The translations under genes and the position numbers were made by a program. Positions 3,085 to 41,831 of a DNA stretch of 61,113 nucleotides are shown here, one piece after another (positions within the stretch are counted from its first letter, which is position 1; each line of letters starts with the position of its first letter). The DNA is from an uncultured Acidobacteriota bacterium (GTDB taxonomy: Bacteria; Acidobacteriota; Polarisedimenticolia; Gp22-AA2), in NCBI GenBank assembly GCA_964384905.1, contig CAYLND010000004.1:1-61113 (forward strand). Direction: 5' to 3'. The notes below the pieces were generated by a model that saw only the letters and a program-made list of their open reading frames with translations, made no database searches and was not told where the DNA came from.

Positions 3085-4418
3085 GCCGGCTCGCCCGGCG
3101 GCTGCGCACCGTCGACTATTTCACCCTCGGGTTCGGCACCATGGTCGGCGTCGGCTGGCTGGTCCTGATGGACGACTGGCTGACGCGCGGCGGCCCGGCC
3201 GGCGTCATGCTCGGCTTCGCCATCGGCGGCGTCGTCCTCCTGCCGATCGCCCTGGTGTACGGCCGCCTGGTGCGCGCCATCCCGGACGCCGGGAGCGAGA
3301 TCGCCTACACCGCCGGCGTCTTCCCGCCCGCCGCCAGCTTCGCCACCGGCTGGATGATGATGCTGGCTTACCTGATCGTCTGTCCGTGGGAGGCGGTCGC
3401 CATCGGCCGGCTGGCGGCCTATCTCTTCCCCGGGCTCGACCGGCTGGAGCTGTACCGCGTCGCCGGGACGCCGGTGTTCCTGCCGCGGCTCGGGCTCGGC
3501 ATGACGCTGACGGCCGCCATCACCCTGATCAACTATCGCGGCATCCGGCTGAGCGCCTCGTTCCAGAAGTGGATGACCTTCGTCCTGCTGGCGATGTTCG
3601 CGGCCTTCCTGCTGGCGTCGGCGGGCCGCGGGTCGCTGGCGAACTTCCGGCCCCCGTTCAGCCACGCCGGGCCGATCTCGGTCCTCCTGGTGCTGCAGAT
3701 CGTGCCTTACTTCATGACCGGGTTCGAGTCGGTGCCGAAGTGCGCCGAAGAGGCCAGCCCCGGCTTCCGCGACCAGGGATTCCTGAAGGCGATGCTGCTG
3801 GCGCTGGCGGTGGCGGTCGTCTTCTACACGACCGTCGCGGCCCTGATCGCCTACCTGCAGCCGTGGCAGGGTCTGGCGTCCCAGCGGTTCGCCACCGCGC
3901 TGGCGTTCGAGCGGGCGTTCGGAAGCCGTCGTGTCGTCGAGCTGCTGTTTCTGGCGGCGCTGGTGTCGCTGGTCAAGGTCTTCAACGGCAACTTCGTCGC
4001 CGCCAGCCGGCTGCTGTTCGCCCTGGGACGGAGAGGTCTCGTGGACGAGAGATTCGGCCGCATCCACGAACGAACCTTCGTCCCGTCCACGGCTGTTCTG
4101 GCCTTGGGCGGCGCCACGGCTGCGGCGACCTTCCTGGGGGACGCGATCCTGGTCCCGATCACCGAGGTCGGCTCGATGGCGTCGGCGCTTGGGTGGCTGG
4201 CAGCCTGTCTCGCCTTCTTCTTCCTCCAGCCCGCGCCGCGGGACCGCGCCCTCGCCCTGGCCGGGACGGGCGTGGCGGCGCTCTTGATCCTGATGAAGAT
4301 CGCCCCGATGGTCCCCGGCCATTTCACGCGCGCCGAGTGGATCGCCCTGCTCGTCTGGTCGGCCCTCGGCCTGGCCGTGCGCCGGCGCGGCCCGGCTCAG
4401 CGCGCGCCCCAGCCCTGA
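3081..4418 (+). CDS. APC-family amino acid permease
   Basis: ATGA overlap with the aminotransferase stop; GTMVGVGW in TM1, FMTGFESVPKCAEE in TM6, about 12 hydrophobic segments (C-terminal part of ORF 2337..4418). Confidence 0.9.
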   Translation: MSRLARRLRTVDYFTLGFGTMVGVGWLVLMDDWLTRGGPAGVMLGFAIGGVVLLPIALVYGRLVRAIPDAGSEIAYTAGVFPPAASFATGWMMMLAYLIVCPWEAVAIGRLAAYLFPGLDRLELYRVAGTPVFLPRLGLGMTLTAAITLINYRGIRLSASFQKWMTFVLLAMFAAFLLASAGRGSLANFRPPFSHAGPISVLLVLQIVPYFMTGFESVPKCAEEASPGFRDQGFLKAMLLALAVAVVFYTTVAALIAYLQPWQGLASQRFATALAFERAFGSRRVVELLFLAALVSLVKVFNGNFVAASRLLFALGRRGLVDERFGRIHERTFVPSTAVLALGGATAAATFLGDAILVPITEVGSMASALGWLAACLAFFFLQPAPRDRALALAGTGVAALLILMKIAPMVPGHFTRAEWIALLVWSALGLAVRRRGPAQRAPQP

Positions 4419-4481
4419 CTGCGGCCTCCACGCGCCCGATCGATCCGACCCTCCGCAGCATCGAAAGAATGCTCCCCATTG

Positions 4482-4510
4482 TTGAAAAAAACGGGATTGG
4501 CTGATATAGA
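4482..4510 (+). promoter_or_regulatory. sigma70-type promoter of the Cys-repeat gene
   Basis: TTGAAA (4482-4487), 17 nt, TATAGA (4505-4510), with TG at 4502-4503 (extended -10), in an AT-rich patch; SD GAGGAG at 4581-4586. Confidence 0.7.
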
Positions 4511-4589
4511 TGGATCCACACCTAAGGGCCGCGACGCTTGAGGGAGGACTTCCTCCCAGGAGGACGAGCGCAAGGGCCATGAGGAGATC

Positions 4590-6137
4590 GTGATGGAAAT
4601 CGGACAAGGGACCGGGTCGTTGGAGTCGAGGACGCGCTCGTCCGTGTCATCCAGGGCGGCGCTCCTCGCGATATTCATGATTCTGGCGGTCTGCGGATGG
4701 GTCGTCGCGGATGTATCCGACCACATTCCCCGTCGGGGGCTCACCGCCCTAGCCGCATTGCAGCATAGAAACCAGCAGAGACCCTGGAACGCCTTGATCC
4801 CGCGCATCGTCCTGGCGGCCGCCAACGCCTCCACACGCCTCGCTCAATCGGGCGTCCATTGCGAGCAGGGCGAGGCGCCCGACGCCGTCGAGGCCTGTGC
4901 GGGGAAGCAAGCGGGCGATGCCTGCACGGTCGACCGCGAAGAGCACGACTTCACCGGCCAGTGCGCTGTGATCCCGGGCGGGATGCTCGCCTGCCAGCCG
5001 CCGTCACCACCCCCTCCGCCCCCGAACGCGGTGAGCGCGTGCGACGGCCTGAAAGCGGGGGACGCGTGCCAGGTGACGGACGACAGTCACACGGTCAACG
5101 GCCTGTGCAGGATGTTCGGGACCGGCGTGCTGGCATGCGTGCCGATCCCGCTGCCCTTGCAGGGACTGATCGACGCCTGCACCGGCAAGAGCGCGGGCGA
5201 CGCCTGCTCGTTCACCCACGAGGACGAGACCGTCAGCGGCCTGTGCATGGCCCTCCCGGACCTGGGGAGCGTGCTGGTCTGCACCCCGCAGCAGGCGATT
5301 CCGCCACGGGTCACCGCCTGCGCCGGCAAGAGCGCCGGCGACGCCTGCTCCTTCACCGGCGAGGATGGGCCGATCAACGGGACCTGCGCCATGCCGCCCG
5401 ATCGCAACGTCCTGGTGTGCCAGTCTCCGCCTCCGCCGGCGGCCGTGAACCCCTGCACCAGCAAGAACGCCGGCGATGCCTGCTCCTTCACGGATGACGA
5501 TCAGACTGTGAACGGCACGTGTATGGCCCTCCCGGACCAGGGCGGACTGCTGGTCTGCGTGCCGCAACAGGAGATTCCGCCGCGGGTCACCGCCTGCGCC
5601 GGCAAGAGCGCCGGCGACGTCTGCTCCTTCACCAACGACGACAGGACCGTCACCGGAAACTGCATCATGCCTCCCGATCACAACATCCTGGTGTGCCAGC
5701 CGCCGCCCCCGCAGGCGCTGATCGACGCCTGCGCGGGCAAGGCGGCGGGCGATGCCTGCGCCGTGACCCTGGGCGATCGCTCCTTCACCGGAACCTGCGC
5801 GACGGCGCCCGACGGCACGACCCTCGCCTGCATGCCGCCGCGCGAGGAATCAGAGCAATCACCGCGCGTGACCGCCTGCACGGGCATGGCCGCGGGCGCG
5901 TCGTGCACCGTGTCGGGCGATCACAGGCCCCGGCACGGCACCTGCCGCCCGAACGACGAGGGGGTGCTGGCGTGCCTGCCGCCGGCACCGCCGCAGGAGA
6001 TGGTGGACGCGTGCTCCGGCCTGAAGGTCGGCGACGCCTGCTCCTTCCCCTGGAAGGATCAAACCCTGAGCGGCACGTGCCGGGCCCTGCCCGGTGGCGC
6101 CACTCTGGTCTGCGCCTCTCTCTGCCCGCACTCCTGA
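4590..6137 (+). CDS. Exported or membrane-anchored protein with nine tandem four-cysteine repeats
   Basis: N-terminal hydrophobic stretch AALLAIFMILAVCGWVVA, then 9 x C-x8-C-x12-C-x9-11-C (consensus ACxGKxAGDACSF...GxC...LxC) with Pro-rich linkers; SD and promoter present. Confidence 0.85.
   Translation: MMEIGQGTGSLESRTRSSVSSRAALLAIFMILAVCGWVVADVSDHIPRRGLTALAALQHRNQQRPWNALIPRIVLAAANASTRLAQSGVHCEQGEAPDAVEACAGKQAGDACTVDREEHDFTGQCAVIPGGMLACQPPSPPPPPPNAVSACDGLKAGDACQVTDDSHTVNGLCRMFGTGVLACVPIPLPLQGLIDACTGKSAGDACSFTHEDETVSGLCMALPDLGSVLVCTPQQAIPPRVTACAGKSAGDACSFTGEDGPINGTCAMPPDRNVLVCQSPPPPAAVNPCTSKNAGDACSFTDDDQTVNGTCMALPDQGGLLVCVPQQEIPPRVTACAGKSAGDVCSFTNDDRTVTGNCIMPPDHNILVCQPPPPQALIDACAGKAAGDACAVTLGDRSFTGTCATAPDGTTLACMPPREESEQSPRVTACTGMAAGASCTVSGDHRPRHGTCRPNDEGVLACLPPAPPQEMVDACSGLKVGDACSFPWKDQTLSGTCRALPGGATLVCASLCPHS
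5307..5633 (+). repeat. Intragenic direct repeat with 276-nt period
   Basis: A 37-nt exact match cgggtcaccgcctgcgccggcaagagcgccggcgacg at 5307 and 5583 continues after one mismatch as ctgctccttcacc. Confidence 0.9.
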
Positions 6138-6191
6138 CGGGAGGATAGGTCGTCCAGTGCACCCCGAGGGCGACCTGCACCGCTAGTCCGG

Positions 6192-6223
6192 GGCGGGCAC
6201 GGCGTATCGATGTCGTGCCCGCC
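6192..6223. terminator. Hairpin between convergent genes (possible terminator)
   Basis: 10-bp stem ggcgggcacg/cgtgcccgcc; no clear U-tract. Confidence 0.4.
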
Positions 6224-6259
6224 TCGCGTCATCTTCCGCGTGACCTGTCCACCAGGCTG

Positions 6260-9200
6260 TCAGGGCCGGCGATCCCAGTAATCGTCGGGGCGGTCGTCGG
6301 ATTCGAGCGCCTCCGGGCTGACCCAGTCATACTCGCCGAACGGCTGGCGCTGCGGCCAGACTTCGTCCAGCGTCGCGGCGTCGTAGAGGACGCCGTCCTG
6401 CATGACGTACAGCGCGTCGGTGGTGTTGCGGATGCCGTCGAGGGGATTCGCGTTCAGCACCACGAGATCGGCGAGCTTGCCGGGAACGAGCGAGCCGAGA
6501 TCCTGCTCCGCGCCGAGGAAGTGCGCCGGCTGGATCGTCGCCACCTCGAGGGCTCCCATCGGCCCCAGGCCCTCGGCGGCCATCCAGATGTCGAAGTGCG
6601 TGTCCATGCCGTGGAACTGCCCGTGGCCACCCACCGCGCCGTACCCGCCTTCGGCGATGACGTCGGCGAGCGCCTGGGCGTAGAGCGCCGAGCCGAAGTC
6701 GGTGATCGGGCGCAGCATGCGGCGGCGGGTGCGCGCCATGAGATCCCACGAAGGCATGAAGCGGCGCAGCTTGGCGTCCTTCCAGAGATCGCGCTCGGCG
6801 TAGAACTGCTGGTCGCCCCACGGACCGGGGCCGCTGGCGCAGAAGGTCGCGGAGTACGTGGCTTTCGCCTGCCCCACGAAGCGGGCGGCGTCGCGGTACA
6901 GCGGGATGGCCAGGATCTCGTGCTCCCAGCCGGGCTGGCCGTCCATGATCATGCCGAGCTCGTGCTCGAACGAGCCGCCCTCCCCCGTCACCATCACGCC
7001 GCGCTTCCTCGCCGCCTCCACGATCCACTGCCGCTGATCGCGCCGCGGGTTCATATACTGCTTGATGGAGACCGCACCCCAGGCGGCGAGCCGGTTGACT
7101 TCGTGCTCGGTCTCCTCGTAGCTGGCGATCTCCCTGGAGCGCTCCGACTGGAGCGACGGCTCGGTCGCCTCGTCCGGATTCTGTCCGGCGATCCAGTCGC
7201 CGATCGGCTCGCCGGTGCTGAACAGGCGCGGCCCGAGCGCCAGCCCGGCGCGGATCAGCTCGGCGTTGCTGAACACGGTGGTCGAGGTGGCGGAGGGATC
7301 CATGGCGGTCGTGATGCCGTAGGCGAGGTAGATCGCCGACTCGAAATTATGAGGCGGGATGACGATCGCCTTGCGGTCGTTGAAATGGGCGTGCATGTCG
7401 ATCAGGCCCGGGATGATCGTCTTGCCGGCGGCGTCGATCACGCGCTCCGCCTGCGCGGCGTCGCACTCCCCGACGCAGACAATCCGGCTGCCCCGGACCA
7501 GGACCGTCCCCCGCTCGATGTTCCTGCGGCCATCCATGGTCAGAATGCGGGCGTCCCGCAGGGCGATCGTCCCCCTGGGGAGGCGGCGCGGCACCCGCAG
7601 ACGGACCGACACGGCGTCGGTCTTGCCCGACGACCGGTGATGCGCCAGGTAGCGGCTGCCGCTCCCGAACTCGATCGTGTCGGCGTCGCGCCAGCGGGGA
7701 AAGAGCCCTCCTTCGTCGGAAAGGCTCCTGACCGGGAGCGCCGGCTTCGTCCAGTCCAGGGTCGGCGGCGCGGCGCCGGTGCCCAGCCAGGGGATCGGCG
7801 CGAGACGGACGTTCATCTCGGCCTGGAACGCGACCCAGCGTCCGTCGGGCGACGCCACCGCTTCGGCGGCGTACGGGAAGCGCAGGTGGACCCGGCGGTC
7901 GCCCCCGTCGGCTGCGACCGAGATCAATTCCGTCGTCGTGCCGGCCGCTCCGGAGGCTCCTTTCCCCTCGCTCTGCTCGGAGTAGAAGATTCTCCCCTCC
8001 GGCCCGAAGCTGGCGCGCACGACTTCCACCGGATCCTCGGGAGGCTTGACGTGCGCCACCACCGTCGCCGGGCCCCCGGCCGCCGGCAGCGACACCAGGT
8101 CGTACCAGGGGTTCTCGGGCCAGGTGCGTGCGCGGGCGGTCACGCCCGTGCCGCGGGCGGCGACGATGCGCCGGCCGTCGGGGCTCCACTCCGGGTTCAG
8201 GTACTCGCCGGTCTCGATCGTGATCCTGCGCGGCGCGCCGCCGCGTGCCGGGACGGTCCACAGCTCGCCGCGCGACTTCTCGTCCCAGGAGGCGAAGACG
8301 ATCGTCCGGCCGTCGGGGGACCAGGCGGGTGACAGCTCGAACGGCGCGAAGCCCTGCGGCGTGAGGCGCCGCGGCTCCCCGTCCGGCAGATCCATGACCC
8401 AGACCTTTCCGACCGCGTGGAACGCCAGCCGCCGGCCGTCGGGCGAAGCGGTCGGCCAGCGCAGCATGCGCGCCTCGAACGGATCGTCGGAAATGCGGAA
8501 CGGCGTGCGGGCCATCTGGGAGATCGTCCGGTGCACCCGGGCGGTGAACGGAATCGTGTCGACCTTGCCGGTCGACACCTCCAGCCGGCGCAGCCTTCCC
8601 CCCTGCGACAGGACGATCGATCTCCCGTCCCGCGCCCAGGCGTATCCGGGAAGGGCCCTGACCGAGAAGCGCACGTCCTCGGCGTTGTCGGTCTCGATCG
8701 GATCCATCACCCGGCGCTCGGCGCCGCTGTCGAGATCGCGCAGCCAGAGCGCCGCCCGCGGCCCGAAGCGCCGGCCGTCGTGCGACACGGTGCCGTCGGG
8801 AATGCGCCGCGCGAAGGCGAGCGTCCGGCCGTCCGGAGAAATCCGGGGCGCGAAACCGCCGTCTCCGGGTCCGCCCGTGAGGTCGTCGGTCCGTCCGGTG
8901 CGCAGCTCCATGCGCCTGATCTGAAGGCACCCCTGCGTCGCCTCGCCGAGGCGGCCGGCGCAGGTGTTGGACTCGAAATAGACGTACGTCCCGTCGGGGG
9001 ACACGGAGGGCCCGCTGACGCCCGTGTCCTCCATGAGGCGGACGCCCTCGCCGCCGTCGCGGTGGTACATCCAGAGGGTGGAGTAGTAGAGACCGCGATG
9101 GCAGACGAGCTGCTTGCGGACGATGAGGTACTGCCCGTCCGGCGTCCAGACCGGCTCTTCGGCGCAGGCGTCCGGATCGGCGAACACGGGCCGCGGACTC

Positions 9201-9589
9201 GAGCCGTCGGCGTTCATGACCCAGACGTTGTTCTGGCCCTGGCGATCGGAGACGAAGGCGATCTGCCGGCCATCCGGCGAGTAGCGCGGTCCGTAGTTGA
9301 GGGCGATGCCGCTGTCCCGCGTGAGGCACTCCGCCTCGCCGCCGGCGGCCGGGACGCGGTAGATGTGCGCCAGGAGATCGAACACCACCCAGCGGCCGTC
9401 CGGGGAGAGATCGACCGACATCTTGGTCCCTTCCTGGGTGCTGAAGTCGATCTCGCGGGTCGCCCCGCGCGGTCGCGTCACGTCCCAGGGCTCCTCGGCG
9501 CGCGGCGCGCCCGCGGTCGCGCAGAGGCACAGTGCCGCGACCAGCGTGGTTCCGGTGCTCAGCGCACGGATCAGGAAGCGGGCCGGCAT
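6260..9589 (-). CDS. Exported amidohydrolase with N-terminal PD40/TolB-like beta-propeller repeats
   Basis: SD GGAGG before ATG 9589 and a signal peptide; many SPDG/WSPDG repeats; C-terminal IIPGLIDMHAH metal motif and GSLVPGKLADLVVL. Confidence 0.9.
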   Translation of the reverse strand: MPARFLIRALSTGTTLVAALCLCATAGAPRAEEPWDVTRPRGATREIDFSTQEGTKMSVDLSPDGRWVVFDLLAHIYRVPAAGGEAECLTRDSGIALNYGPRYSPDGRQIAFVSDRQGQNNVWVMNADGSSPRPVFADPDACAEEPVWTPDGQYLIVRKQLVCHRGLYYSTLWMYHRDGGEGVRLMEDTGVSGPSVSPDGTYVYFESNTCAGRLGEATQGCLQIRRMELRTGRTDDLTGGPGDGGFAPRISPDGRTLAFARRIPDGTVSHDGRRFGPRAALWLRDLDSGAERRVMDPIETDNAEDVRFSVRALPGYAWARDGRSIVLSQGGRLRRLEVSTGKVDTIPFTARVHRTISQMARTPFRISDDPFEARMLRWPTASPDGRRLAFHAVGKVWVMDLPDGEPRRLTPQGFAPFELSPAWSPDGRTIVFASWDEKSRGELWTVPARGGAPRRITIETGEYLNPEWSPDGRRIVAARGTGVTARARTWPENPWYDLVSLPAAGGPATVVAHVKPPEDPVEVVRASFGPEGRIFYSEQSEGKGASGAAGTTTELISVAADGGDRRVHLRFPYAAEAVASPDGRWVAFQAEMNVRLAPIPWLGTGAAPPTLDWTKPALPVRSLSDEGGLFPRWRDADTIEFGSGSRYLAHHRSSGKTDAVSVRLRVPRRLPRGTIALRDARILTMDGRRNIERGTVLVRGSRIVCVGECDAAQAERVIDAAGKTIIPGLIDMHAHFNDRKAIVIPPHNFESAIYLAYGITTAMDPSATSTTVFSNAELIRAGLALGPRLFSTGEPIGDWIAGQNPDEATEPSLQSERSREIASYEETEHEVNRLAAWGAVSIKQYMNPRRDQRQWIVEAARKRGVMVTGEGGSFEHELGMIMDGQPGWEHEILAIPLYRDAARFVGQAKATYSATFCASGPGPWGDQQFYAERDLWKDAKLRRFMPSWDLMARTRRRMLRPITDFGSALYAQALADVIAEGGYGAVGGHGQFHGMDTHFDIWMAAEGLGPMGALEVATIQPAHFLGAEQDLGSLVPGKLADLVVLNANPLDGIRNTTDALYVMQDGVLYDAATLDEVWPQRQPFGEYDWVSPEALESDDRPDDYWDRRP

Positions 9590-9681
9590 CGCAGTCCTCC
9601 CGCGGACCCGCCCGGGTCCGCTCTCAGGACCGGCGAGTATATGTGAGGGGAGTCGGAGGTGCGGGTTGACCCGAATCCCGA

Positions 9682-9954
9682 TCAGCAGGGAGTGGCCGTG
9701 CAGTGCCCGCCGCTCTTCGAGCACCTGTACGCCAGGCTGCTCGCGAGGCAATCGGCGGGCTTGCTTCCCTTCGGCTTGTCGCAGATCTGCATGGGGCACC
9801 CGGGCGCGGCGATCGCCGTGCTCGGGCCGAAGATCGCAAGGGCGGAACGATAAGGCGTGCCGCCCGTCCTCAGCAGACTGGCGGCGGGGGACACCGCGGC
9901 CAGCACCAGCATCACCGCAAAGAATCTCGCAACGGAGCGCTTCGATACGAGCAT
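9682..9954 (-). CDS. Small secreted six-cysteine protein (90 aa)
   Basis: SD GAGGAG 6 nt before ATG 9954; basic and hydrophobic N-terminus; C-terminal C-x4-C-x10-C-x8-C-x6-C-x4-C ending at the last residue. Confidence 0.7.
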   Translation of the reverse strand: MLVSKRSVARFFAVMLVLAAVSPAASLLRTGGTPYRSALAIFGPSTAIAAPGCPMQICDKPKGSKPADCLASSLAYRCSKSGGHCTATPC

Positions 9955-10093
9955 GGTCGTCTCCTCTTTGTGGCCTCTATGTACCACGAGGATCGCGTGG
10001 ACGCAACCTGCGGGGCGTTTCCGCGCGGATCACGGCAGCGTGCCGGCGGTGAAGGTGACGCCGGCGTTGACCTGTCGTCGGTCCGCCTCCCGA

Positions 10094-10456
10094 TCACGCC
10101 GAGACGATCGTCTTGAACCCGCCCCAGAACATGCGCTTGCCGTCGAAGGGCATCGATTTCGGGTCCATCATCTTCGCGAGGCGGGGGTCCTTCATGACCT
10201 TCGCGTTGATCCGGTCGCGGTGCTGGCGCGACTTGTAGACGATGTAGGAGAACACCACCGTCTCCCCCGGCTTCAGCTTCACGCTCTGCGGGAACGAGGT
10301 CCACTTCCCGCGCTTGACGTCGTCCGCGGCGCACTCGATGTACTCGAGGGCCCCGTGATCGCGCCAGACCTTGCCGGCTTTCTGCGACATGCGGCGATAG
10401 GCCGCGAGCTTCTTCTTCGGCACCGGCACGACGAAACCATCGACGTAGTGGGCCAT
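10094..10456 (-). CDS. DUF1428 family protein
   Basis: MAHYVDGFVVPVP...GALEYIEC...ETVVFSYI...MPFDGKRMFWGGF family signature; SD GGAGG before ATG 10456. Confidence 0.9.
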   Translation of the reverse strand: MAHYVDGFVVPVPKKKLAAYRRMSQKAGKVWRDHGALEYIECAADDVKRGKWTSFPQSVKLKPGETVVFSYIVYKSRQHRDRINAKVMKDPRLAKMMDPKSMPFDGKRMFWGGFKTIVSA

Positions 10457-10477
10457 GCGTATCCTCCCTGGAGATCG

Positions 10478-10681
10478 CTCGTTCAAGTCGCGCGCCTCGA
10501 TCAGGTGGAAGCCGGCCCGCTGCTCCTTCGTTTCGGCGAAGGCCCCGTCGGAGACCGACAGCTTGCCGTTGCGCACGCGCACCGTCGTCGCGGTCTCCAC
10601 CGGCTGCAGCGCCTCCGAGGCGATGCAGCGGCCGCTCTCGCGCAGTCCCGCATCGTACGCCAGGCACTCGTGATCGTCCAG
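10478..10681 (-). pseudogene. YciI (DGPF-domain) fragment
   Basis: ALQPVETATTVRVRNGKLSVSDGAFAETKEQRAGFHLIEARDLNE matches the YciI/DGPF central motif; both termini are missing. Confidence 0.7.
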
Positions 10682-10702
10682 CGGGACCGCCGAGGGGTGC
10701 CC

Positions 10703-10774
10703 CGTCTCCCCTCCCAGGAACTCCATGACCAGGAAGTCGACGCCGTCCTGCGAGTCGAAGTCGTGGATCGCGGG
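10703..10774 (-). pseudogene. Internal fragment of a Ser/Thr protein kinase (subdomains IV-V)
   Basis: AIHDFDSQDGVDFLVMEFLGGET resembles the hinge region of bacterial Hanks-type kinases. Confidence 0.6.
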
Positions 10775-10925
10775 CTGAGGAGGTGCGAGCCAGGCAGCTT
10801 CGGCGCCCTGTCCGCGACTCGACGCGATCATACAGCGGAACCGCGACGCGCGATGAAGGCGCCGGATCGATGCGGCGGCCCGCTTGATCGCGAGCGCGAT
10901 CGGCGCCCGCTCTTCGCGTGGGGCG

Positions 10926-10931
10926 TATAAT
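10926..10931 (+). promoter_or_regulatory. -10 box upstream of the Tat-Rieske gene
   Basis: Perfect TATAAT with no recognisable -35; palindrome GATCGCG-AG-CGCGATC at 10886-10901; SD GGAGGGAGG before ATG 10997. Confidence 0.5.
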
Positions 10932-10996
10932 TCCGCTTCACTACGGGACAGATCATCGGCCAGATAGGCTCTCGAGCCTCATCGGAGGGAGGTCTC

Positions 10997-12406
10997 ATGG
11001 GAAACAGGAAGAAGGTGGATCGCCGCGACTTCGCCAAGACGACGCTGGCGGTCGGCGCCGCGGGCGCCGCCAGTATCGCTTTCCCTTCCGTGCTCGGCGC
11101 CGCCGACGAGCCGGACAGTCCGCTGGTGCCTAAAGGCGCTCACGCGCCGGCCGCGCCGGCGCGGGCCGCGTCCGCCTGGCGCGAGGGGACCACCATCCCG
11201 GCCTGGTATTACCTCGACCCGGCCCAGTACGCGGTCGACGAGCGTCTGATCGCCGACACCTTCTGGCTGATGGTCGATCACGAGAGCCGCATCCCGAACC
11301 CGGGCGACTATTTCGTCTTCGAGTTCGGCCGCGGCGAGAACGTCATCCTCGTCCGCAACGGCGAGGGGAAGGTGAAAGCGTTCCACAACGTCTGCCGCCA
11401 CCGCGGCTCGAGGCTGTGCCGGGACAGCGACGATCCCCGGCCGGCCGACCCGCGCCTCTCCGTGCGGCAGCTGAGCGCCAGCGGCAACACGCCGCTGTTC
11501 CGCTGTCCGTACCACGGCTGGACCTACGATCTCGACGGGCGTCTCGTCCAGTCGTACCGCATGCCGGGCGACTTCGACCCGGCGAGGAACGGTCTGGTCC
11601 CGTGCCACGTGCGTCTCTCCGAGGGGCACATCTTCGTCAACCTGTCGCGCGACGAGAAGCCGCCCGATTTCGAGAGCAATCTCGAGTGGTACACCCAGGT
11701 CGCGCAGCCGTACGGCTTCGCGGGGCTCAAGATCGGCGCCCGCCGCTTCTATCCGATCAAGGCCAACTGGAAGCTGGCGATCGAGAACTTCCTCGAGTGC
11801 TACCACTGCGGGCCGTCCCACAAGAACCTGGTCACGACGCACAACTGGGACTACACGCTGTCGGACGCGCAGGAGGCCCAGAGAGACAAGGAGATCGTCG
11901 CCTGGATGGCGCGGACCGGACGCCGGGAGGCGGCCGTGAGCAAGGGCATGGGGATGGGGGGAGCGACCGACCCCGCCGCCCTGGACGGCGAGCTGAACCC
12001 CGGCTTTCTCACCGGCTCGCTGGACGGCAAACCGGTGGCGCCGCTGCTTCCCAACATCAAGGACTGGACCCACACCACCAACATCGCCACGACCGCCTGG
12101 TCGACCGGCTACTGGCAGGCGTACGACGACCACGTGGCCGTGGCGCGGTTCACGCCGCGCGACGTGGCCCGCACCGACTGCGAGATCTTCTGGCTGGTCC
12201 ATCCGAAGGCCGTCGAGGGGAAGGACTTCGTTGCGGATCGGTTGATGGCCCTGTGGGACATCACGATCCAGGAAGATATCTGGATCGTCGAGAACAACCA
12301 TCTCGGCATCACCTCCGGCGCCTACTCCTCCGGACGGTACGCCGGCCACGAAAGCTATCCGGCCGATTTCGTGAAGTGGTACATGGAGAAGGTCGTGAAG
12401 TCGTGA
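10997..12406 (+). CDS. Rieske non-heme iron oxygenase alpha subunit (GbcA/choline-monooxygenase-like) with twin-arginine signal
   Basis: Rieske ligands CRH...CPYH; mononuclear Fe motif ENFLECYHCGPSH and late QED; N-terminus DRRDFAK followed by a hydrophobic h-region. Confidence 0.9.
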   Translation: MGNRKKVDRRDFAKTTLAVGAAGAASIAFPSVLGAADEPDSPLVPKGAHAPAAPARAASAWREGTTIPAWYYLDPAQYAVDERLIADTFWLMVDHESRIPNPGDYFVFEFGRGENVILVRNGEGKVKAFHNVCRHRGSRLCRDSDDPRPADPRLSVRQLSASGNTPLFRCPYHGWTYDLDGRLVQSYRMPGDFDPARNGLVPCHVRLSEGHIFVNLSRDEKPPDFESNLEWYTQVAQPYGFAGLKIGARRFYPIKANWKLAIENFLECYHCGPSHKNLVTTHNWDYTLSDAQEAQRDKEIVAWMARTGRREAAVSKGMGMGGATDPAALDGELNPGFLTGSLDGKPVAPLLPNIKDWTHTTNIATTAWSTGYWQAYDDHVAVARFTPRDVARTDCEIFWLVHPKAVEGKDFVADRLMALWDITIQEDIWIVENNHLGITSGAYSSGRYAGHESYPADFVKWYMEKVVKS

Positions 12407-12918
12407 GGAGGTGGCCGGCGGCCATCGGCCTGCTCGCGCTCGGCTGCGCCGCCCGGACGCTGCCGCGGGTCCTCTCGACCGAGGTCGCCCCGGGCGGCGC
12501 GCCCCGCACCCTCCGGGACGGCGTCTACAACGTCGAGCAGAGCCGGCGCGGCGAAGAAGTCTATTTCACGACCTGCGTCCGCTGCCACAAGCCGGAGATG
12601 ACCGGCTCGCAGATCGTGCCGCCCCTCGTCGGCCAGACGTTTCTCGCCCGCTGGCGCACGAAGACGGCGGGCGATCTGTTCGAATGGGTGCGGACGTCGA
12701 TGCCGCCGGGCGACCTCGCCCGACAGATGACCCCGCAGAAATACGCCGACGTCCTCGCCTATCTCTTCAGCCGGAACGAATTCCCCGCGGGACAGGACGA
12801 GCTGGCCGCCGATTTCGACGCTCTCCACACGATCCGGTTCGCCCCTGAGTCGGGGGGGCCGGACAGCGGCCTCCCGCCGGCCGCGGCGCAGGCTCTGCCG
12901 GCCGCTCCCGATCCCTAG
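12403..12918 (+). CDS. Monoheme cytochrome c, probable lipoprotein
   Basis: GTGA overlap with the Rieske stop; MRRWPAAIGLLALGC lipobox-like signal; CVRCH heme motif (12574-12588); axial Met candidate in RTSMPP. Confidence 0.85.
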   Translation: MRRWPAAIGLLALGCAARTLPRVLSTEVAPGGAPRTLRDGVYNVEQSRRGEEVYFTTCVRCHKPEMTGSQIVPPLVGQTFLARWRTKTAGDLFEWVRTSMPPGDLARQMTPQKYADVLAYLFSRNEFPAGQDELAADFDALHTIRFAPESGGPDSGLPPAAAQALPAAPDP

Positions 12919-12987
12919 GACGGGTGCGACCGGGACGCGGCTGCCCGTTCGGCACGACGCCTGAGGGGATCCGCCTGAACCCCGTGC

Positions 12988-14124
12988 TTACCTGGGCGAT
13001 CTGTCTTCGGATGGAGTCGGCCTGGGTCTGGGTGGATTCCTGGGGTTTCCCCTGGCATCGCCCCTCGCGCGGCCGTCGTTGTTCGCCGGCCCGTTGGCCT
13101 TCGGCTGCCGGACGGGAGGCTGCCGCACCTCCGGCGCCCGGTCCCATCGTCGGCCGCGATCCGAGGCCTCCGGCCGGGAGTCGGCCTGAGGCAGCGCCTG
13201 CGGGTCGGCGCTCGGAGAGAAGCGGCGGCCGTGCGGCTCCCCTTCCGGCTGCGGCGGGGCGGCCTGCGGTTGTCTCTCCCTGACTCTCCCGCGCCGCGCA
13301 TCGCTCCGATCACGCGAAACGTCGCCGGAGCGGCTGATGAGGGTCCCGGACTGCTTTTCGGAGATCGGCTCGGCGGCCCGCAGCCGCGTGCGGCTCCCCG
13401 CCGCATCCACGCGCAGGTCGCCGCGGGTCATGCGTCGGGACGGGCCGACCCTCGGCACGCTCTCGATCGACGTGCGCTGGATCGTCCTGCCGGTGGCCCT
13501 CTGGACGATCCGTATGTCGGGACCACGGTTGACCACGACGTTGTTCTCGACGCGGATCGTGTTCTCGATCCGGGTGTCGTTGATGATCCTGCGGGTGGTC
13601 CTGGCGGTCACGGCGCAGGTGCGCACGCGCGGGGCGAGAAAGTCGCGGCTCGCCACGAACACGAACAGATCGGGGCGGTCGCCCAGGGAATGGATCGACA
13701 TCCCGACGGAGTAGCCGACCGGAACGGGGGCCCAGCCGATGTAATCCGGCCCGCTGCTGAAGACGACCCACGCGGGGGCCCACACGTAGCCCGGAACCCA
13801 GACCCAGCCCAGGTCCGCATCGACGACCCAGGTCCCGTAATGGTAGGGAACCGCTCCCCATTGGTAGTCCGACACCCAGGTCCAGCCGAGATCGGTGTAG
13901 ACCCAGTGACCGTCGTAATACGGGTTCCATCCTCTCCGGTATTCGGCGGGCTGCCAGACGCGCCCGTAGCTGCCGGAGACGAGCCAGTCGCCATGGGGAC
14001 CGAGGCTCGAGTAGAAGAAGTCGAAGGAGATTCCCACGCCGGATGACGCACGGGCAGGAACGAAGACGCAGCCGGCAATCAACAGCACGATGAGACCGAT
14101 GCCAGAGAATCGCAGTCTGCTCAC
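12988..14124 (-). CDS. Exported DUF6600-like (Trp/Tyr/Gly-rich) protein with disordered C-terminus
   Basis: SD GGAGG before GTG 14124 and a signal peptide; GWxPYxxGxW, WTWVSDYQWG, YHYGTW and WVWVPGYVWAPAWV motifs. Confidence 0.8.
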   Translation of the reverse strand: MSRLRFSGIGLIVLLIAGCVFVPARASSGVGISFDFFYSSLGPHGDWLVSGSYGRVWQPAEYRRGWNPYYDGHWVYTDLGWTWVSDYQWGAVPYHYGTWVVDADLGWVWVPGYVWAPAWVVFSSGPDYIGWAPVPVGYSVGMSIHSLGDRPDLFVFVASRDFLAPRVRTCAVTARTTRRIINDTRIENTIRVENNVVVNRGPDIRIVQRATGRTIQRTSIESVPRVGPSRRMTRGDLRVDAAGSRTRLRAAEPISEKQSGTLISRSGDVSRDRSDARRGRVRERQPQAAPPQPEGEPHGRRFSPSADPQALPQADSRPEASDRGRRWDRAPEVRQPPVRQPKANGPANNDGRARGDARGNPRNPPRPRPTPSEDRSPR

Positions 14125-14189
14125 GATGCAACCTCCCGCCCTCGCCCCCTTACCGGGCTCCGGCTCGTTTCTGCACAGGAGGACGAAGA

Positions 14190-14205
14190 AGCAACATCGG
14201 TGCCA
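14190..14205 (-). promoter_or_regulatory. sigma54 (-24/-12) promoter
   Basis: Minus strand TGGCAC-CGATG-TTGCT is an exact match to TGGCAC-N5-TTGCW, 66 nt upstream of the GTG at 14124. Confidence 0.75.
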
Positions 14206-14324
14206 CCCATGCCAGAGTCCGGTTCCTCGAGTTTTGACGGCCGGCGCGCGGCCATTGTCCCCTCGCGCGGACGCCCGCAATCGCGCGGCGTCGTCCCCGG
14301 AGCGTTACGATGGCGTGGGAGCGC

Positions 14325-15503
14325 TCAATCCCTCATCGAGCGCGCCGGGCCGGGTGGATGGGAGCGGTCCGGAGCGTCGGGCGCCGGCCCGCGCTCGCGC
14401 AGGTAGTGCTGATCGAACTCGTAGACCCATTCGTCCTGAGGAGGATAGACGCCGCGCCGGTAGGCGCGCGAACGCTGCCCCATCTGGGCGCGCTCGCAGA
14501 TGCCCCAGTCCTGCCGGTTGATCAGGTCGTGGAACTCCACGATCTCGCGGGGGTCGAAGTCGTCGCGCGCGATGGTGGAGGGTTCGAACAGGAGACCGCA
14601 GGTGACGCCGGTGCGCTCGGCGGCGCCGGGCCACAGGATCGAGTACAGCACGTTGTCCGGGAAGCAATCGAGGATCAGGTTCGGGAAGACGGTCATGCCG
14701 TTGTAGAGTCCCCGCTCCTGCTCCGTCAGGTCCGGAAGAACAGGAAGACGCGAGCGCCCGGTGCGCGTGAACGAGGTCGCGCCCTCGACCAGACGGTTGC
14801 CCCAGATGCCGTCCGACTCGACCAGGACGCCCCTGCGATAGAGCGGGATCACCTTCACCAGCTCGGGGTGGACCTTGGGACAGTGGAGACACTCGTTGTA
14901 GTTCTCGTGGATGATCTTCCAGTTCGCCGCGACGTCGTAGGCGAAGCGGTGCGCCACCCGGAGACGTTCGAGACGGTAGCGCCGGTAACCGGTCCACTCG
15001 CCCAGCTGCCGGTCCAGCGGGCCCGGCTCGGCCGCCAGGTTGACGAAGATGAATCCCTCCCAGGTCTGCAGCGCGACGGCGTGCAGCCCATGCCGGGCCC
15101 GGTCGAAGCCCGCCACCTCCGGAACGTTCGGCGTCGCGATCAATCGCCCGTCGAGGGAATACGTCCAGGCATGATACGGGCAGGTGAGCGCCTTCGCGGA
15201 CGATCCCTCTCCCTCGCACAGCCGCGTCCCCCGGTGCCGGCAGACGTTGTAGAAGGCCCGCAGCGAAAGCGCCTCGTCGCGCACGACGACCAGACTCTCC
15301 CCCGTCACCTCGCGGACCATGAAATCGCCCGCGCCAGGGATCTGGTCGTCGCGCCCGACGCAGAACCAGCTGCGGAAGAAGATCCGCTCCTTCTCCAGCT
15401 CGAAGATGTCCGCGGCGTAGTAATCGCGCGCGGGAAGGGTCGGCCTCATCGCGGAGGACCCGGCGGCCCCGCGATCCAATCCCGTACCTGTCTCTTGGCT
15501 CAT
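14325..15503 (-). CDS. Cytoplasmic Rieske non-heme iron oxygenase alpha subunit (GbcA/CntA/choline-monooxygenase-like)
   Basis: CRH-x17-CPYH; ENYNECLHCPKVHPEL; NRQDWGICERAQ; no signal peptide. Confidence 0.9.
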   Translation of the reverse strand: MSQETGTGLDRGAAGSSAMRPTLPARDYYAADIFELEKERIFFRSWFCVGRDDQIPGAGDFMVREVTGESLVVVRDEALSLRAFYNVCRHRGTRLCEGEGSSAKALTCPYHAWTYSLDGRLIATPNVPEVAGFDRARHGLHAVALQTWEGFIFVNLAAEPGPLDRQLGEWTGYRRYRLERLRVAHRFAYDVAANWKIIHENYNECLHCPKVHPELVKVIPLYRRGVLVESDGIWGNRLVEGATSFTRTGRSRLPVLPDLTEQERGLYNGMTVFPNLILDCFPDNVLYSILWPGAAERTGVTCGLLFEPSTIARDDFDPREIVEFHDLINRQDWGICERAQMGQRSRAYRRGVYPPQDEWVYEFDQHYLRERGPAPDAPDRSHPPGPARSMRD

Positions 15504-15667
15504 CTTCGTTCCCCGCCTCACCCCGCGCCGGCGGCACCTCGCGTACCATGGAGCGGCGCGGCCGCTGACGATTCCGCGGAACAGCTCGCCGGACATGTAC
15601 CACGCCGGAGGTCTCCGGGCAACAAATGACGGACGTCGGGAGCCGATCCACATCCCGGGGCGGAACG

Positions 15668-17026
15668 ATGTTTCATGACAGGGTCCCGGACACCGGCCTG
15701 CGGCGCGAGATGCGGCCACTGGCCCTTCTCGCCACCATGTTCGTCCTTCTCTCCGGCGGGCCGTACGGACTCGAGGAGGTCATCCCGCGGGCGGGGCCTG
15801 GTCTCGCCCTTCTGGTCCTGAGCGCGCTGGCCATCGTGTGGGCCGTTCCGTACGCCCTGATCGTCGCCGAGCTGGTGTCCGTCCTGCCGGCCGAGGGAGG
15901 AATCTATCAATGGTTCCGCGCCGGGCTGGGACCGTTCTGGTCGTTCCAGCTCGCCCTGCTCGACTGGATCACCTGGATGCTCGATGCCGCCCTCTACCCT
16001 CCTCTGGTGGCGGCTTACGTGGCCGGACTGTTCGTCCACGATCCCGGCCGCTGGGTCAGGTGGGGGATCAGCCTCGTCATGATCTGGGGATGCACGTGGC
16101 TCAACGTTCGGGGCGTCAAGATGGTGGGATGGCTCTCCCTGGCGATCTCGATCGTGGTCCTGGCGCCGATCGTCGCGATCGTCCTTCTGGGAGCGTCTCG
16201 CGTGAGCCTCGGGCCGCTCGCCACGCTGATCCCCGAGGGTGAGTCCTTCTCCACCGCGCTCCGTTACGCCCTCATCTGGTCGCTCTGGAGCTACTCGGGG
16301 TACGGCGCCCTGGCCGGCGCGAGCGAGGAGATGGTGCGACCTGAGCGGACCTATCCGCGGGCTCTGGCGATCTTCGTGCCGCTGTCCGTCGCGACTTATG
16401 TTCTTCCTCTGCTCGTCGCGCTCGGCGTGTCGCCCGACTGGTCGCACTGGGACACGGGACAGTTCAACCAGGTGGCTCGGACACTCGGTGGCGCGGGCCT
16501 CCTGGCCCTCACGGTCGCCGCGGTGCAGATCTCGAGCCTCGGGCTCTTCAACAGCGAGCTCCTGGTCGTTTCCAGGACGCCGTACGCCATGGCTCGCGAC
16601 GGTCTGCTGCCTTCGGAGCTCGCCGCGCTCCACCCCCGCTACGGCACGCCGGCGCGGATCCTGTTTCTCACGGCGATCATGTACAGCCTCCTCACCTTCT
16701 TCTTCGACTTCGTGCAGCTCCTGGTCGCGAGCACCTGGCTCGCCTTGCCGGCCTATCTCCTGACGTTCGCCTCCCCGATCCTCCTGCGCTGGAGGCACCC
16801 CGAAGCCCGCGGGCCGTTCCGGATCCCCGGCGGCTGGCCGGTCCTCCTGGTCGTCGCGCTGGTTCCATCGGCGATCGCGCTGTACGTGCTCGTCACTATC
16901 GAGATGAGACACGTGCTGCTGGGCCTGGGCTTCGTCGCGGCGGTCCCGGTCCTGTACGTCTTCTCGAGATGGTGGAGCCGCCGGGACGGAGCTATTTTCT
17001 CGCCGACAGATCGGCGACCCAGTTGA
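15668..17026 (+). CDS. APC-family permease, polyamine-transporter-like
   Basis: SGGPYGLEE in TM1, WSYSGY in TM6, RYGTP loop, about 12 hydrophobic segments; divergent from the second Rieske gene. Confidence 0.85.
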
Positions 17027-17247: not shown

Positions 17248-20016
<2,769 letters not shown>

Positions 20017-20126
20017 CGGCCAGTGTCCCTCGACAACGGTGACGGCGGCGGAAGGGTACCATGTCCGTGCCGGACGAACGCGCGCGCCCTGGTCGGTGCT
20101 GCTCCGCCAACTGTGCCCGTCCTTCG

Positions 20127-20135
20127 TGCTATAGT
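20127..20135 (+). promoter_or_regulatory. Extended -10 promoter
   Basis: TGcTATAGT about 200 nt upstream of ATG 20332. Confidence 0.45.
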
Positions 20136-20331
20136 CCGACCGGTTCTACCATCACCTCTTACTGTTTCACGGGCAGCAACGCTGTTTGGAGTGGTCGCGG
20201 TCCCGCGCCTCATCCGTGAGGCTGTGCATGAGCTCCAGGGCACCACCTGCCGTCGCAAGCGCCACGCATCGTCGTCACCTGCCGCAGAATTCTGCCGCGA
20301 ACCATTGGGTCATAGAGGATGGGAGGGGGCC

Positions 20332-21774
20332 ATGGGCTCAGCCTCGAAGAAGTGCCACGAGCCGGCGATCGGGTCGCGCCTGGCGTTCGTTCTTCTGGCG
20401 CTGTCGGTCGCCGGATGCGTGGCGGTCGGATCGGACATGTCGAAGAGCAAGCAGGACCACGGCGACAACGGGAAGAAAGTAGGAACGGGCCTGTCGTTCG
20501 CCGACCAGACGGTGGTGGTGGCGGCGGCGCCCGCGGCTCCTCCTGCCTCGGGGTGGGACGACGAGCGCGTGATGAGCGGCGAGGACGACTGGGAGCCGGC
20601 GAACGCCGTCGACCCCGTCAACTCGAACTACGTGTACCAGCTCACGACGCGTTACACCGGGCCGAAGCCGTGCGGCAACTGCAAGATGCCCGCGATCGTC
20701 CTGCGCCGTTCGACCGACGGCGGGGCGACCTGGCTGGCGGACAAGTTCCTGGCGGTCACGGGCAAGGGCCAATACGATCCGCAGATCCAGGTCGCGACCA
20801 GCGGCTGGGTCTACGCGGTGTGGCTGGATGCCTTCACGCCCGGATCGACGTTCGTGAGATCGATGGACCGCGGCGCGACCTTCTCGCCGGGCATCTCATG
20901 GTCCGGCAACGGGAAGAAGCCGCAGTGGAACGACAAACCCTGGCTGAACATCTCGAAAGACGGCCAGCACGTCTACCTCGGATTCAACTCCAGCGACAGC
21001 TACATCGTCGTGTCGCATGATTTCGGCAACTCGTTCTCGGCGCCGATCAAGACGAACAACGACACGCGCTACTGGTTCCATTCCGGAGGGGTCGTCTCGC
21101 CGACGAACCCGATGGTCGCCTACTTCGCCACCAGCAATTACACCAGCGGGAACAACTACAACGGAGACTCCAACGTCGAGATCCTGCGGACGACGGACGG
21201 CGGCGCGACCTGGACCGACATCCACATCGATACCTCCCGCGAGGTGCCGCCCTGTCCCTGGGCCGCGGGCTGCGGGCAGGGATTTCTCGGCACGCAGGCG
21301 GCGCTGGCGATGGACAGCGCCGGGAAGCTCATGATTGTCTACAACGCCAACGACGTCCCCGACGCGCCGGAGCAGATTTACGTGCGCACCTCGACCGACG
21401 GCGTCATCTGGAGCGCGCGCCAGAAGATTTCGGTCGCCTCCGCCACGGTGAACAGCGGCTTCCCCGCCGCGGCCGCCCACCCGACCACCGCCGGCGACTT
21501 CCGCGTCTGGTTTCAGGACGATCGTCTCCAGAGCCACACGGGATGGAACACCTGGTACAAGCGCACCACGAACGGCGGCTCGACGTGGTCCGCCGACGTC
21601 CGCGTGTCGAATCTCACCTCCGGGGCGCCCTACAAGAACGCCAACGGCTATGCGTTCCCGTACGGCGACTACGGCGAGATCGCCGTCGACGCGAACGGCC
21701 GGAACTACCTGGTCTGGGGCGAAGGGGCCAGCTACAGCGGCCCGGGCGGCACCTGGTACACCCGGGGGCAATAG
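20332..21774 (+). CDS. Lipoprotein with BNR/Asp-box beta-propeller (sialidase-like fold)
   Basis: SD GGAGG before the ATG; VLLALSVAGC lipobox; six Asp-boxes (RSTDGGATW, RSMDRGATF, VSHDFGNSF, RTTDGGATW, TSTDGVIW, RTTNGGSTW). Confidence 0.85.
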   Translation: MGSASKKCHEPAIGSRLAFVLLALSVAGCVAVGSDMSKSKQDHGDNGKKVGTGLSFADQTVVVAAAPAAPPASGWDDERVMSGEDDWEPANAVDPVNSNYVYQLTTRYTGPKPCGNCKMPAIVLRRSTDGGATWLADKFLAVTGKGQYDPQIQVATSGWVYAVWLDAFTPGSTFVRSMDRGATFSPGISWSGNGKKPQWNDKPWLNISKDGQHVYLGFNSSDSYIVVSHDFGNSFSAPIKTNNDTRYWFHSGGVVSPTNPMVAYFATSNYTSGNNYNGDSNVEILRTTDGGATWTDIHIDTSREVPPCPWAAGCGQGFLGTQAALAMDSAGKLMIVYNANDVPDAPEQIYVRTSTDGVIWSARQKISVASATVNSGFPAAAAHPTTAGDFRVWFQDDRLQSHTGWNTWYKRTTNGGSTWSADVRVSNLTSGAPYKNANGYAFPYGDYGEIAVDANGRNYLVWGEGASYSGPGGTWYTRGQ

Positions 21775-21804
21775 CGGTCGACTGGCTTTGAGGGTCATGC
21801 GAAA

Positions 21805-21832
21805 GGCCCCGACTGCGACGGCGGTCGGGGCC
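21805..21832. terminator. Probable bidirectional terminator
   Basis: 12-bp stem ggccccgactgc/gcggtcggggcc (one G-U pair) between convergent genes; short T-runs on both sides. Confidence 0.55.
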
Positions 21833-21839
21833 GTCGCTT

Positions 21840-27699: not shown

Positions 27700-27730
27700 C
27701 GGACAGGACGTCCGCCGTGAGGAGCCGCTC

Positions 27731-28849: not shown

Positions 28850-28900
28850 ATTCGTCTCGCGCGAGGGACGTATCGATGTTCGAGTCGCCCGGGAGCATCC

Positions 28901-29377: not shown

Positions 29378-29433
29378 GCTGACCCCCGGGTTTCGGACGG
29401 TCCCGACCCACGACGGGCCGGGCTTCTGCAAAG

Positions 29434-29462: not shown

Positions 29463-29484
29463 GACCGGCGCTGCCGGCCGGCGT

Positions 29485-41821: not shown

Positions 41822-41831
41822 GAACCCGCGC

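Follow-up and report, generated by a model that had tools for sequence, protein, structure and literature searches.

A 61,113-nucleotide (nt) stretch of DNA from an uncultured Acidobacteriota bacterium (contig CAYLND010000004.1 of assembly GCA_964384905.1), hereafter called the window, was found to contain two overlapping genes on the forward strand, the first for a Rieske non-haem-iron oxygenase alpha subunit with a predicted twin-arginine translocation (Tat) signal and the second for a lipoprotein cytochrome c (Table 1). Rieske oxygenases are regarded as cytoplasmic enzymes that depend on a reductase chain driven by reduced nicotinamide dinucleotides (NAD(P)H), and to our knowledge all schemes for their classification have been built on the electron-transfer chain. 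A first-pass annotation, made from the letters of the window alone, had interpreted the two genes as a possible periplasmic oxygenase system, and this interpretation was supported by the results described below.

Table 1. Positions of the oxygenase and cytochrome c genes, their sequence features, the flanking window genes and dehydrogenase genes of related loci
Feature	Position	Strand	Remarks
Shine-Dalgarno-like sequence, GGAGGGAGG	10984..10992	+	Upstream of the oxygenase ATG; read from the sequence
Tat-signal Rieske non-haem-iron oxygenase alpha subunit gene	10997..12406	+	469 amino acids (aa); Pfam Rieske and Ring_hydroxyl_A
Predicted Tat signal peptide, residues 1-36	10997..11104	+	Amino-terminal (n-) region, DRRDFAK, Ala/Gly-rich hydrophobic (h-) region, LGA/A
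DRRDFAK motif	11018-11038	+	
Ala/Pro-rich linker, residues 37-60	11105..11176	+	Length varies among homologues; alignment and model confidence
Rieske [2Fe-2S] domain, residues 90-185	11264..11551	+	C133-R-H135 and C170-P-Y-H173; Pfam and invariant columns
Clade-specific insertion, residues ~142-163, RDSDDPRPADPRLSVRQLSASG	11420..11485	+	Between the two cluster-binding motifs
Catalytic domain, residues 244-466	11726..12394	+	Pfam Ring_hydroxyl_A; invariant columns; alignment to 3n0q and Stc2
E267, H270 and H275	11795-11821	+	Bridging Glu and iron ligands within the catalytic domain
D427	12275-12277	+	Iron ligand within the catalytic domain
GTGA overlap	12403..12406	+	Oxygenase TGA (12404-12406) and cytochrome c GTG (12403)
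Lipoprotein monohaem class I cytochrome c gene	12403..12918	+	171 aa; Pfam Cytochrome_CBB3, 33.1 bits (cut-off 27)
Lipobox LALGC, Cys15	12433-12447	+	
CVRCH haem motif, residues 58-62	12574-12588	+	
Axial M100-P101	12700-12705	+	
Open reading frame with YCII-related domain and DUF1428	10094-10831	-	Divergent from the oxygenase gene
DUF6600 protein	12988-14280	-	Between the cytochrome c gene and a second Rieske oxygenase gene; absent there in locus L169
SpdH-like gene, locus L081	3918-5948		
SpdH-like gene, locus L083	3952-5925		
SpdH-like gene, locus L088	10227-12155		
SpdH-like gene, locus L089	1990-3957		
SpdH-like gene, locus L003	9379-11301		
SpdH-like gene, locus L008	15282-17291	-	
Pyrroloquinoline quinone (PQQ) beta-propeller gene, locus L085	3995-5929		Quinohaemoprotein-like; signal peptide and N-terminal CxxCH; directly upstream of the Tat-Rieske gene
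PQQ beta-propeller homologue, locus L004	2940-5024		Quinohaemoprotein-like; signal peptide and N-terminal CxxCH; about 3 kb upstream of the Tat-Rieske gene

The intact Rieske cluster and mononuclear-iron motifs first read from the letters were borne out by Pfam matches of the oxygenase open reading frame (ORF) to Rieske (53 bits, cut-off 20.3) and Ring_hydroxyl_A (102 bits, cut-off 24.9) and by an alignment of 37 homologues in which the cluster ligands C133, H135, C170 and H173, the bridging E267 and the iron ligands H270, H275 and D427 were all invariant. The Rieske motifs read CRHRGS and CPYHGW, with CPYHGWTY as box II in full, and the 2-His-1-carboxylate site was complete, with the bridging carboxylate three residues before the first His and with ligands that aligned with those of Protein Data Bank (PDB) entry 3n0q and Stc2. 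An AlphaFold model (predicted local distance difference test score (pLDDT) 76, predicted template-modelling score 0.78) had a two-domain fold, Rieske plus START-like catalytic, and was of low confidence only at residues 1-59 (pLDDT <50), 135-157 and 309-326. The top fold match of this model was Stc2, a stachydrine (proline betaine) demethylase (4qur, E 4e-31, template-modelling (TM) score 0.78 on the target); the order of matches ran from Stc2 (4qur, 3vca) and 3n0q to CntA, the carnitine monooxygenase, with alpha/beta dioxygenases last, and identity to the solved members was 21-30%. A sequence search of the PDB likewise gave 3n0q (E 8e-54), then Stc2 (3vca and 4qup, E 6e-48), then CntA. The best NCBIfam model was that for GbcA, the glycine betaine monooxygenase (NF058607, 226.5 bits over residues 60-468), and since this score is far under the equivalog cut-off of 670, the oxygenase was placed as a relative or sister branch of GbcA and not as its orthologue. 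No beta-subunit gene was seen in the window. Judged from its sequence and modelled fold, the 469-aa protein is an alpha-only Rieske non-haem-iron oxygenase of the Stc2/GbcA/CntA branch, and its quaternary structure is probably alpha3.

The oxygenase began with MGNRKKVDRRDFAK, in which a basic n-region precedes DRRDFAK, followed by 22 uncharged residues, TTLAVGAAGAASIAFPSVLGAA, with a mean Kyte-Doolittle value of 1.45, and then by DEP, in agreement with the twin-arginine motif and hydrophobic stretch reported at first pass. Conservation of the RR motif in homologues had been set beforehand as a test of the proposal. Among the best 120 database homologues (50-80% identity, 99-100% coverage), RRxF was kept in 112, and the remaining 8 started inside or after the h-region, their starts being truncated or mis-called. 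The signal consensus of the 112 was SRRDFAKTSVAAGAAAVALP..LRAE, with a motif of the form [SN]RRxF[AT]K and SRRDFAK as the clade consensus. R9, R10 and F12 were invariant in the 37-sequence alignment while the residues before them and the linker, which ends at a conserved GWREGTTIPA..YY near residue 60, varied freely. The h-region of homologues ended in an AxA-like cleavage site or LRA/E, except in four (P0058, P0082, P0105 and P0120) that kept the RR motif and ended the h-region in a lipobox, L[VL]GC; by their sequences these four are candidate Tat-exported lipoprotein oxygenases. Exchange of an AxA site for a lipobox with retention of RR is sensible only for an exported protein and thus argues that the signal functions in export. 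A weak match to PF10399, the Pfam model of the bc1 Tat signal, was also noted for the N-terminus of the homologue in locus L004 (E 4.4e-4, 20 bits, cut-off 24).

A false ORF or a start downstream of the signal, the latter also named at first pass as a refuting finding, was ruled out, as homologues spanned residues 1-469 and the signal was under selection at the protein level. The annotated ATG was accepted as the real start because of the strong Shine-Dalgarno sequence, the alignment of homologues from residue 1 and the lipobox swaps; signal-less relatives aligned only from query residue ~58-64. Apparent N-terminal alignments of loci L031, L039 and L095 were rejected as spurious, since they crossed stop codons and belonged to upstream genes; the proteins of these loci are ordinary signal-less relatives. 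On the evidence of these alignments, the N-terminus of the oxygenase is a Tat signal under purifying selection, and the protein would be exported by the Tat pathway with probable cleavage after LGA.

The gene downstream encodes a protein that begins MRRWPAAIGLLALGC and matches Cytochrome_CBB3/Cytochrom_C in Pfam, and the GTGA overlap of the oxygenase gene with a CxxCH lipoprotein gene, as originally described, was confirmed. Its lipoprotein signal reads MRRW-PAAIGLLA-LGC, in which Ala rather than Leu at lipobox position -3 is acceptable but non-canonical; an alternative in-frame GTG at 12376, 27 nt upstream, would add 9 residues and leave the lipobox unchanged. In 25 cytochrome homologues, C58, C61, H62, M100 and P101 were invariant; ≥90% of them retained Cys15, generally within the pattern [AIV][GSA]C. 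Sequence matches of the cytochrome to PDB entries were marginal (E 0.015 or worse) and fold matches were weak (E 0.08 or worse), but since all of the latter were class I cytochromes c, including cL and XoxG, the class was supported with no specific relative identified. The 171-aa protein is thus predicted from its motifs to be a membrane-tethered, N-terminally lipidated His/Met monohaem cytochrome c. A scan of positions 10600-13300 gave no promoter-like site and one terminator-like site, which was not above chance expectation.

The gene context of relatives was taken from look-ups by exact protein. A homologue of the cytochrome gene was directly downstream of the oxygenase gene in 11 of 11 distinct loci at ≥58% identity, namely the window, the syntenic L169 (87%), L089 (77%), L090 (76%), L081/82 (76%), L170-172 (74%), L092 (71%), L083/84 (65%), L093 (62%), L085 (60%) and L091 (58%), and the flanking genes of these loci differed. 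A 4-nt overlap of the two genes was noted in five loci (the window, L169, L081, L089 and L090), which points to matched stoichiometry of their products; gaps of 23-70 nt were noted in the other paired loci, the genes of L092 being nearly abutting if the ATG at 952 is used. In L004, the most basal locus (41%), one cytochrome homologue was convergent just downstream and a second copy was upstream. Three additional oxygenase/cytochrome pairs (P0002/P0276, P0007/P0296 and P0008/P0286) are suggested by contigs of the same length for both members of each pair. In look-ups from the cytochrome side, a Rieske gene or fragment was just upstream in three of three cases: the gene was complete for P0271 and P0299, and a 65-aa gene fragment of unverified identity, at the end of the contig, preceded P0302. 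In every readable context, the cytochrome family was found only beside Tat-Rieske genes. The first-pass expectation of a neighbouring cytochrome c held for all loci at ≥58% identity but not beyond the single subclade that the cytochrome-linked loci formed in a neighbour-joining tree plus the basal L004. The match of the Tat-Rieske gene of L093 (4001-5358) was split between two reading frames near residue 166, which indicates a frameshift, from either sequencing error or a pseudogene.

Members of the Tat clade were also distinguished by an insertion in the Rieske domain. The spacer between CxH and CxxH was 34-46 residues in all 120 clade members as opposed to 17 (rarely 18-19) in solved structures and in the signal-less relatives recovered by a search of 1.84 billion representative sequences, so that the insertion amounts to at least 17 residues. 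The inserted sequence was highly conserved, with RLSV.QL nearly invariant. The same search gave a clear break in score between the clade (≥350 bits, ≥47% identity) and the next relatives (≤290 bits, ~40% identity), which were proteins of 400-420 aa without signal or insertion. Tat signal and insertion were always inherited together, and the Tat clade was monophyletic in the neighbour-joining tree. The clade comprised at least 120 clusters at 90% identity, with Acidobacteriota and Woeseiaceae/Gammaproteobacteria metagenome-assembled genomes (MAGs) as hosts of the named members and with annotations that were all generic ('aromatic ring-hydroxylating dioxygenase subunit alpha' or 'Rieske 2Fe-2S family protein'). 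Genome and metagenome scans with the generic motif CPYH[AG]W returned mostly cytoplasmic GbcA-like relatives, with about ten clade loci among the matches listed. Placed by homology, the insertion would sit at the tip of the Rieske domain, between the loops that hold the cluster; in other Rieske oxygenases, this tip is the docking place of the redox partner.

Other genes recurred near the oxygenase in relatives. A SpdH-like flavoprotein of 640-690 aa with its own RRDF Tat signal, which matched SpdH (PDB 7d9h, E 9e-49), was encoded beside the oxygenase or a short way from it in L081/82, L089, L083, L088, L003, L008 and L001/87, and PQQ beta-propeller genes were noted in two loci (Table 1). SpdH, the spermidine dehydrogenase of Pseudomonas, cleaves spermidine and spermine and carries flavin adenine dinucleotide and haem (PMC9397018). 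No SpdH-like or PQQ homologue was found in the window, and L169 also lacked both; coupling to a dehydrogenase is thus not claimable for this locus. In L088, three tandem Tat-signal Rieske oxygenase paralogues (6001-10159) preceded the SpdH-like gene, and three contigs of the Acidobacteriota MAG CBDAMQ01 (L002, L003 and L008) together carried no fewer than five clade members. Weak hints of one-carbon metabolism were a gene of the GFA (formaldehyde-activating) family upstream of the oxygenase in L169 (4130-4543), formate-dehydrogenase-like molybdopterin and NuoF-like genes downstream in L004 (10861-14280) and an S-methyltransferase gene downstream in L083 (8082-9137). A DUF1428 gene was noted near the oxygenase/cytochrome pair in L170.

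Comparison with known systems indicated likeness to each of several groups in part. The best sequence matches (E 8e-54 to 8e-48) and fold matches (TM score 0.77-0.81 on the target) were Stc2 (3vca, 4qup/4quq/4qur) and the uncharacterised TM1040_3219 (3n0q), which share with the window oxygenase the alpha-only Rieske plus Ring_hydroxyl_A arrangement and an E-x2-H-x4-H ... D iron site. These proteins are, however, only 28-30% identical to the window oxygenase, align from query residue 62-64 and lack the signal, the linker and the 17-residue insertion; they work in the cytoplasm and need a reductase that uses NAD(P)H. GbcA and CntA, the former as best NCBIfam model and the latter as next fold group (its sequence alignment covering the N-terminal half only), likewise have a bridging Glu in place of the Asp of classical dioxygenases, but they use the cytoplasmic reductases GbcB and CntB, and no homologue of either reductase is present in the window. 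Its predicted compartment, the conserved partner gene beside it and the Rieske-domain insertion set the window oxygenase apart from Stc2, GbcA and CntA alike. The Rieske proteins of the bc1 complex (PetA/QcrA) and arsenite oxidase (AioB) are also Tat-exported [2Fe-2S] proteins with a c-type cytochrome counterpart, as predicted here, but are small subunits for electron transfer only, with no mononuclear-iron domain and with CTHLGC/CPCHGS motifs and a disulfide pair that are absent from the window oxygenase. Methanol dehydrogenase with cytochrome cL, XoxF with XoxG, flavocytochrome c and SpdH-type enzymes resemble the present pair in that the gene of a periplasmic redox enzyme lies beside that of a dedicated small class I cytochrome c; in those pairs, however, the cytochrome accepts electrons whereas the partner in the window has an electron-consuming, O2-activating site. 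No description of an exported Rieske oxygenase was found in a full-text literature search, which covered open-access papers and so yields an absence of evidence.

The interpretation that we favour, and hold with moderate confidence, is that of a periplasmic two-component oxygenase, in which a Tat-exported Rieske monooxygenase is reduced by the lipoprotein cytochrome c without NAD(P)H. In such a system, folding of the oxygenase and insertion of its [2Fe-2S] cluster would take place in the cytoplasm, before export and probable cleavage, and the co-translated, lipid-tethered cytochrome c would replace the usual reductase or ferredoxin in a periplasm free of NAD(P)H. The cytochrome would hand to the Rieske cluster, one at a time, electrons that come from periplasmic dehydrogenases or the respiratory chain, and the insertion beside the cluster probably reshapes the docking surface. 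Each electron would then cross the subunit interface via E267 to the mononuclear iron held by H270, H275 and D427, where O2 would be activated and the substrate hydroxylated. By analogy with the nearest relatives and from the amine-dehydrogenase and one-carbon neighbours, the most likely substrate class is N-alkylated or quaternary amines, so that a small compound of this kind, or a related nitrogen compound, would be dealkylated.

Several findings weigh against this interpretation. The main difficulty concerns redox potential, in that the Rieske box II (CPYHGWTY), which cytoplasmic relatives share, belongs to the low-potential oxygenase type and His/Met cytochromes c are usually of high potential; on a naive estimate, this cytochrome would have to pass electrons to the cluster against the potential gradient. 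The Tyr found four positions beyond the second His ligand also occurs in cytoplasmic relatives, and the potential can therefore not be inferred from the sequence. With regard to the partner, no CxxCH ORF was found within 5-8 kb of the oxygenase in L001/87, L002, L003, L008/86 or L088; roughly half of the clade members for which the context is known belonged to such cytochrome-less groups (48-57% identity, often tandem paralogues), and for these the partner may be encoded elsewhere in the genome or the haem domains of neighbouring dehydrogenases may donate directly. The insertion was modelled at pLDDT <50 and was also carried by clade members not linked to a cytochrome, and so is not specific to the linked subclade. 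Nor was any clear charge complementarity noted between the insertion, the first half of which carries a charge of about -2, and the cytochrome core, which is near neutral to acidic; these charges therefore lend no support to a simple electrostatic docking model. The proposed substrate class was taken from relatives of only 28-30% identity, and the GbcA model scored 226 bits against its cut-off of 670. The N-demethylase activity suggested at first pass has the closest relatives (Stc2, GbcA and CntA) and the weak one-carbon neighbours as its only basis. Finally, although the first-pass statement that no reductase or ferredoxin gene lies nearby was upheld, it carries little weight. No reductase of the ferredoxin-NADP reductase type, ferredoxin or beta subunit was found among the 37 window ORFs scanned with Pfam (positions 20016-21840, 27699-29485 and 38213-41993 being outside the scan), but a second, signal-less Rieske oxygenase of the window also has no reductase nearby, which makes the missing reductase weak evidence.

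The combination of low-potential Rieske motifs and high-potential haem ligation keeps alive the opposite direction of electron flow, in which an exported Rieske protein would oxidise its substrate in the manner of a dehydrogenase and pass electrons to cytochrome c and then to a terminal oxidase. Arsenite oxidase, the Tat-exported Rieske subunit of which feeds cytochrome c, is a model for such flow. Transfer from the Rieske cluster to the cytochrome would be downhill if, as the conserved M100-P101 suggests, the haem is of high potential, and the SpdH-like and PQQ neighbours of relatives are dehydrogenases that also need an acceptor. We nevertheless consider this direction unlikely, given a complete 2-His-1-carboxylate O2 site and bridging Glu that are invariant across the clade, a fold that is that of bona fide monooxygenases and the lack of the extra disulfide cysteines of the high-potential Rieske domains of bc1 and AioB; we also know of no Ring_hydroxyl_A protein that functions as a dehydrogenase without O2. 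That the O2-activating site never varies speaks for an oxygenase, and hydroxylation by O2 is so favourable that even a cytochrome c could supply the electrons, provided that the potential of the cluster is tuned.

Whether the adjacent cytochrome is the partner of an exported oxygenase was considered separately. Its absence beside half of the clade, often with a Tat-exported SpdH-like protein encoded within a few kb (L088, L003, L008 and L001/87), and the identical insertion in cytochrome-linked and unlinked members would be consistent with a cytochrome that works for general respiration or for some other enzyme of the periplasm, the oxygenase being reduced instead by the haem domain of an SpdH-like flavohaemoprotein or quinohaemoprotein or by another carrier. 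Restriction of the cytochrome family to the neighbourhood of Tat-Rieske genes, with or without SpdH-like or PQQ genes nearby (the window and L169 have neither), and translational coupling in five loci render this alternative improbable as well. Least probable is that the signal is a mere look-alike, with the enzyme cytoplasmic or held by an inward-facing anchor, its reductase encoded elsewhere and the adjacency of the cytochrome reflecting co-regulation only. Reductases of Rieske oxygenases are indeed often encoded far from the oxygenase, and the signal-less window oxygenase is itself an example of a gene with none nearby. However, R-R-x-F was invariant in all full-length clade members (50-100% identity) while n-region and linker varied freely, some members swap the AxA site for a lipobox, neighbouring genes in relatives themselves carry Tat or Sec signals and c-type cytochromes are matured and functional only outside the cytoplasm.

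Extension of the periplasmic oxygenase interpretation to the whole Tat clade is more doubtful. In this tentative extension, all members would be NAD(P)H-independent periplasmic oxygenases that receive two electrons from periplasmic dehydrogenases (SpdH-like or PQQ) or the respiratory chain via haem, either through a dedicated cytochrome c or through the haem domain of the dehydrogenase, to give a self-balanced module for dealkylation and subsequent oxidation of amines outside the cytoplasm, with the insertion as an adaptation for docking of haem proteins. Export of so sizeable and conserved a clade and its pairing with a cytochrome c would, if true, run counter to what is generally assumed of this much-studied family and would extend the Rieske oxygenases to a further cellular compartment and a novel type of redox partner. 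Electrons of the respiratory chain or the periplasm would then be able to power the activation of O2 at a Rieske/mononuclear-iron site. Extracytoplasmic oxidation of nitrogen compounds by abundant, poorly cultured bacteria of soil and sediment would likewise be implied, and an oxygenase fed by a simple haem protein, possibly by an electrode, would be attractive for biocatalysis.

The second Rieske oxygenase of the window (14325-15719, reverse strand) contained Rieske and Ring_hydroxyl_A domains with a 17-residue spacer and no signal, scored 195 bits as GbcA-like and probably starts internally to the listed ORF. The gene converged on the cytochrome c gene and was divergent from that of an amino-acid permease (15626-17026, forward strand), and the pairing of the predicted exported oxygenase with a cytoplasmic one recurred in the syntenic L169. 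Elsewhere in the window, the three ORFs scanned within 2985-6137, the longest of the 3-kb stretch at 3084-6260, had no Pfam match. Genes at 6260-9799, 17248-20016 and 35079-38213 on the reverse strand and at 25057-27699 and 54934-57270 on the forward strand encoded a PD40-repeat/amidohydrolase protein (1179 aa), two Ser/Thr kinases (920-1040 aa), a TPR-CHAT protein and a VKOR-thioredoxin/AhpC fusion, gene content that fits the Acidobacteriota assignment of the nearest relatives. Window genes for a resistance-nodulation-division pump and the fusion protein that goes with it, and one for a beta-barrel protein of the outer membrane, indicate a diderm host with a periplasm.

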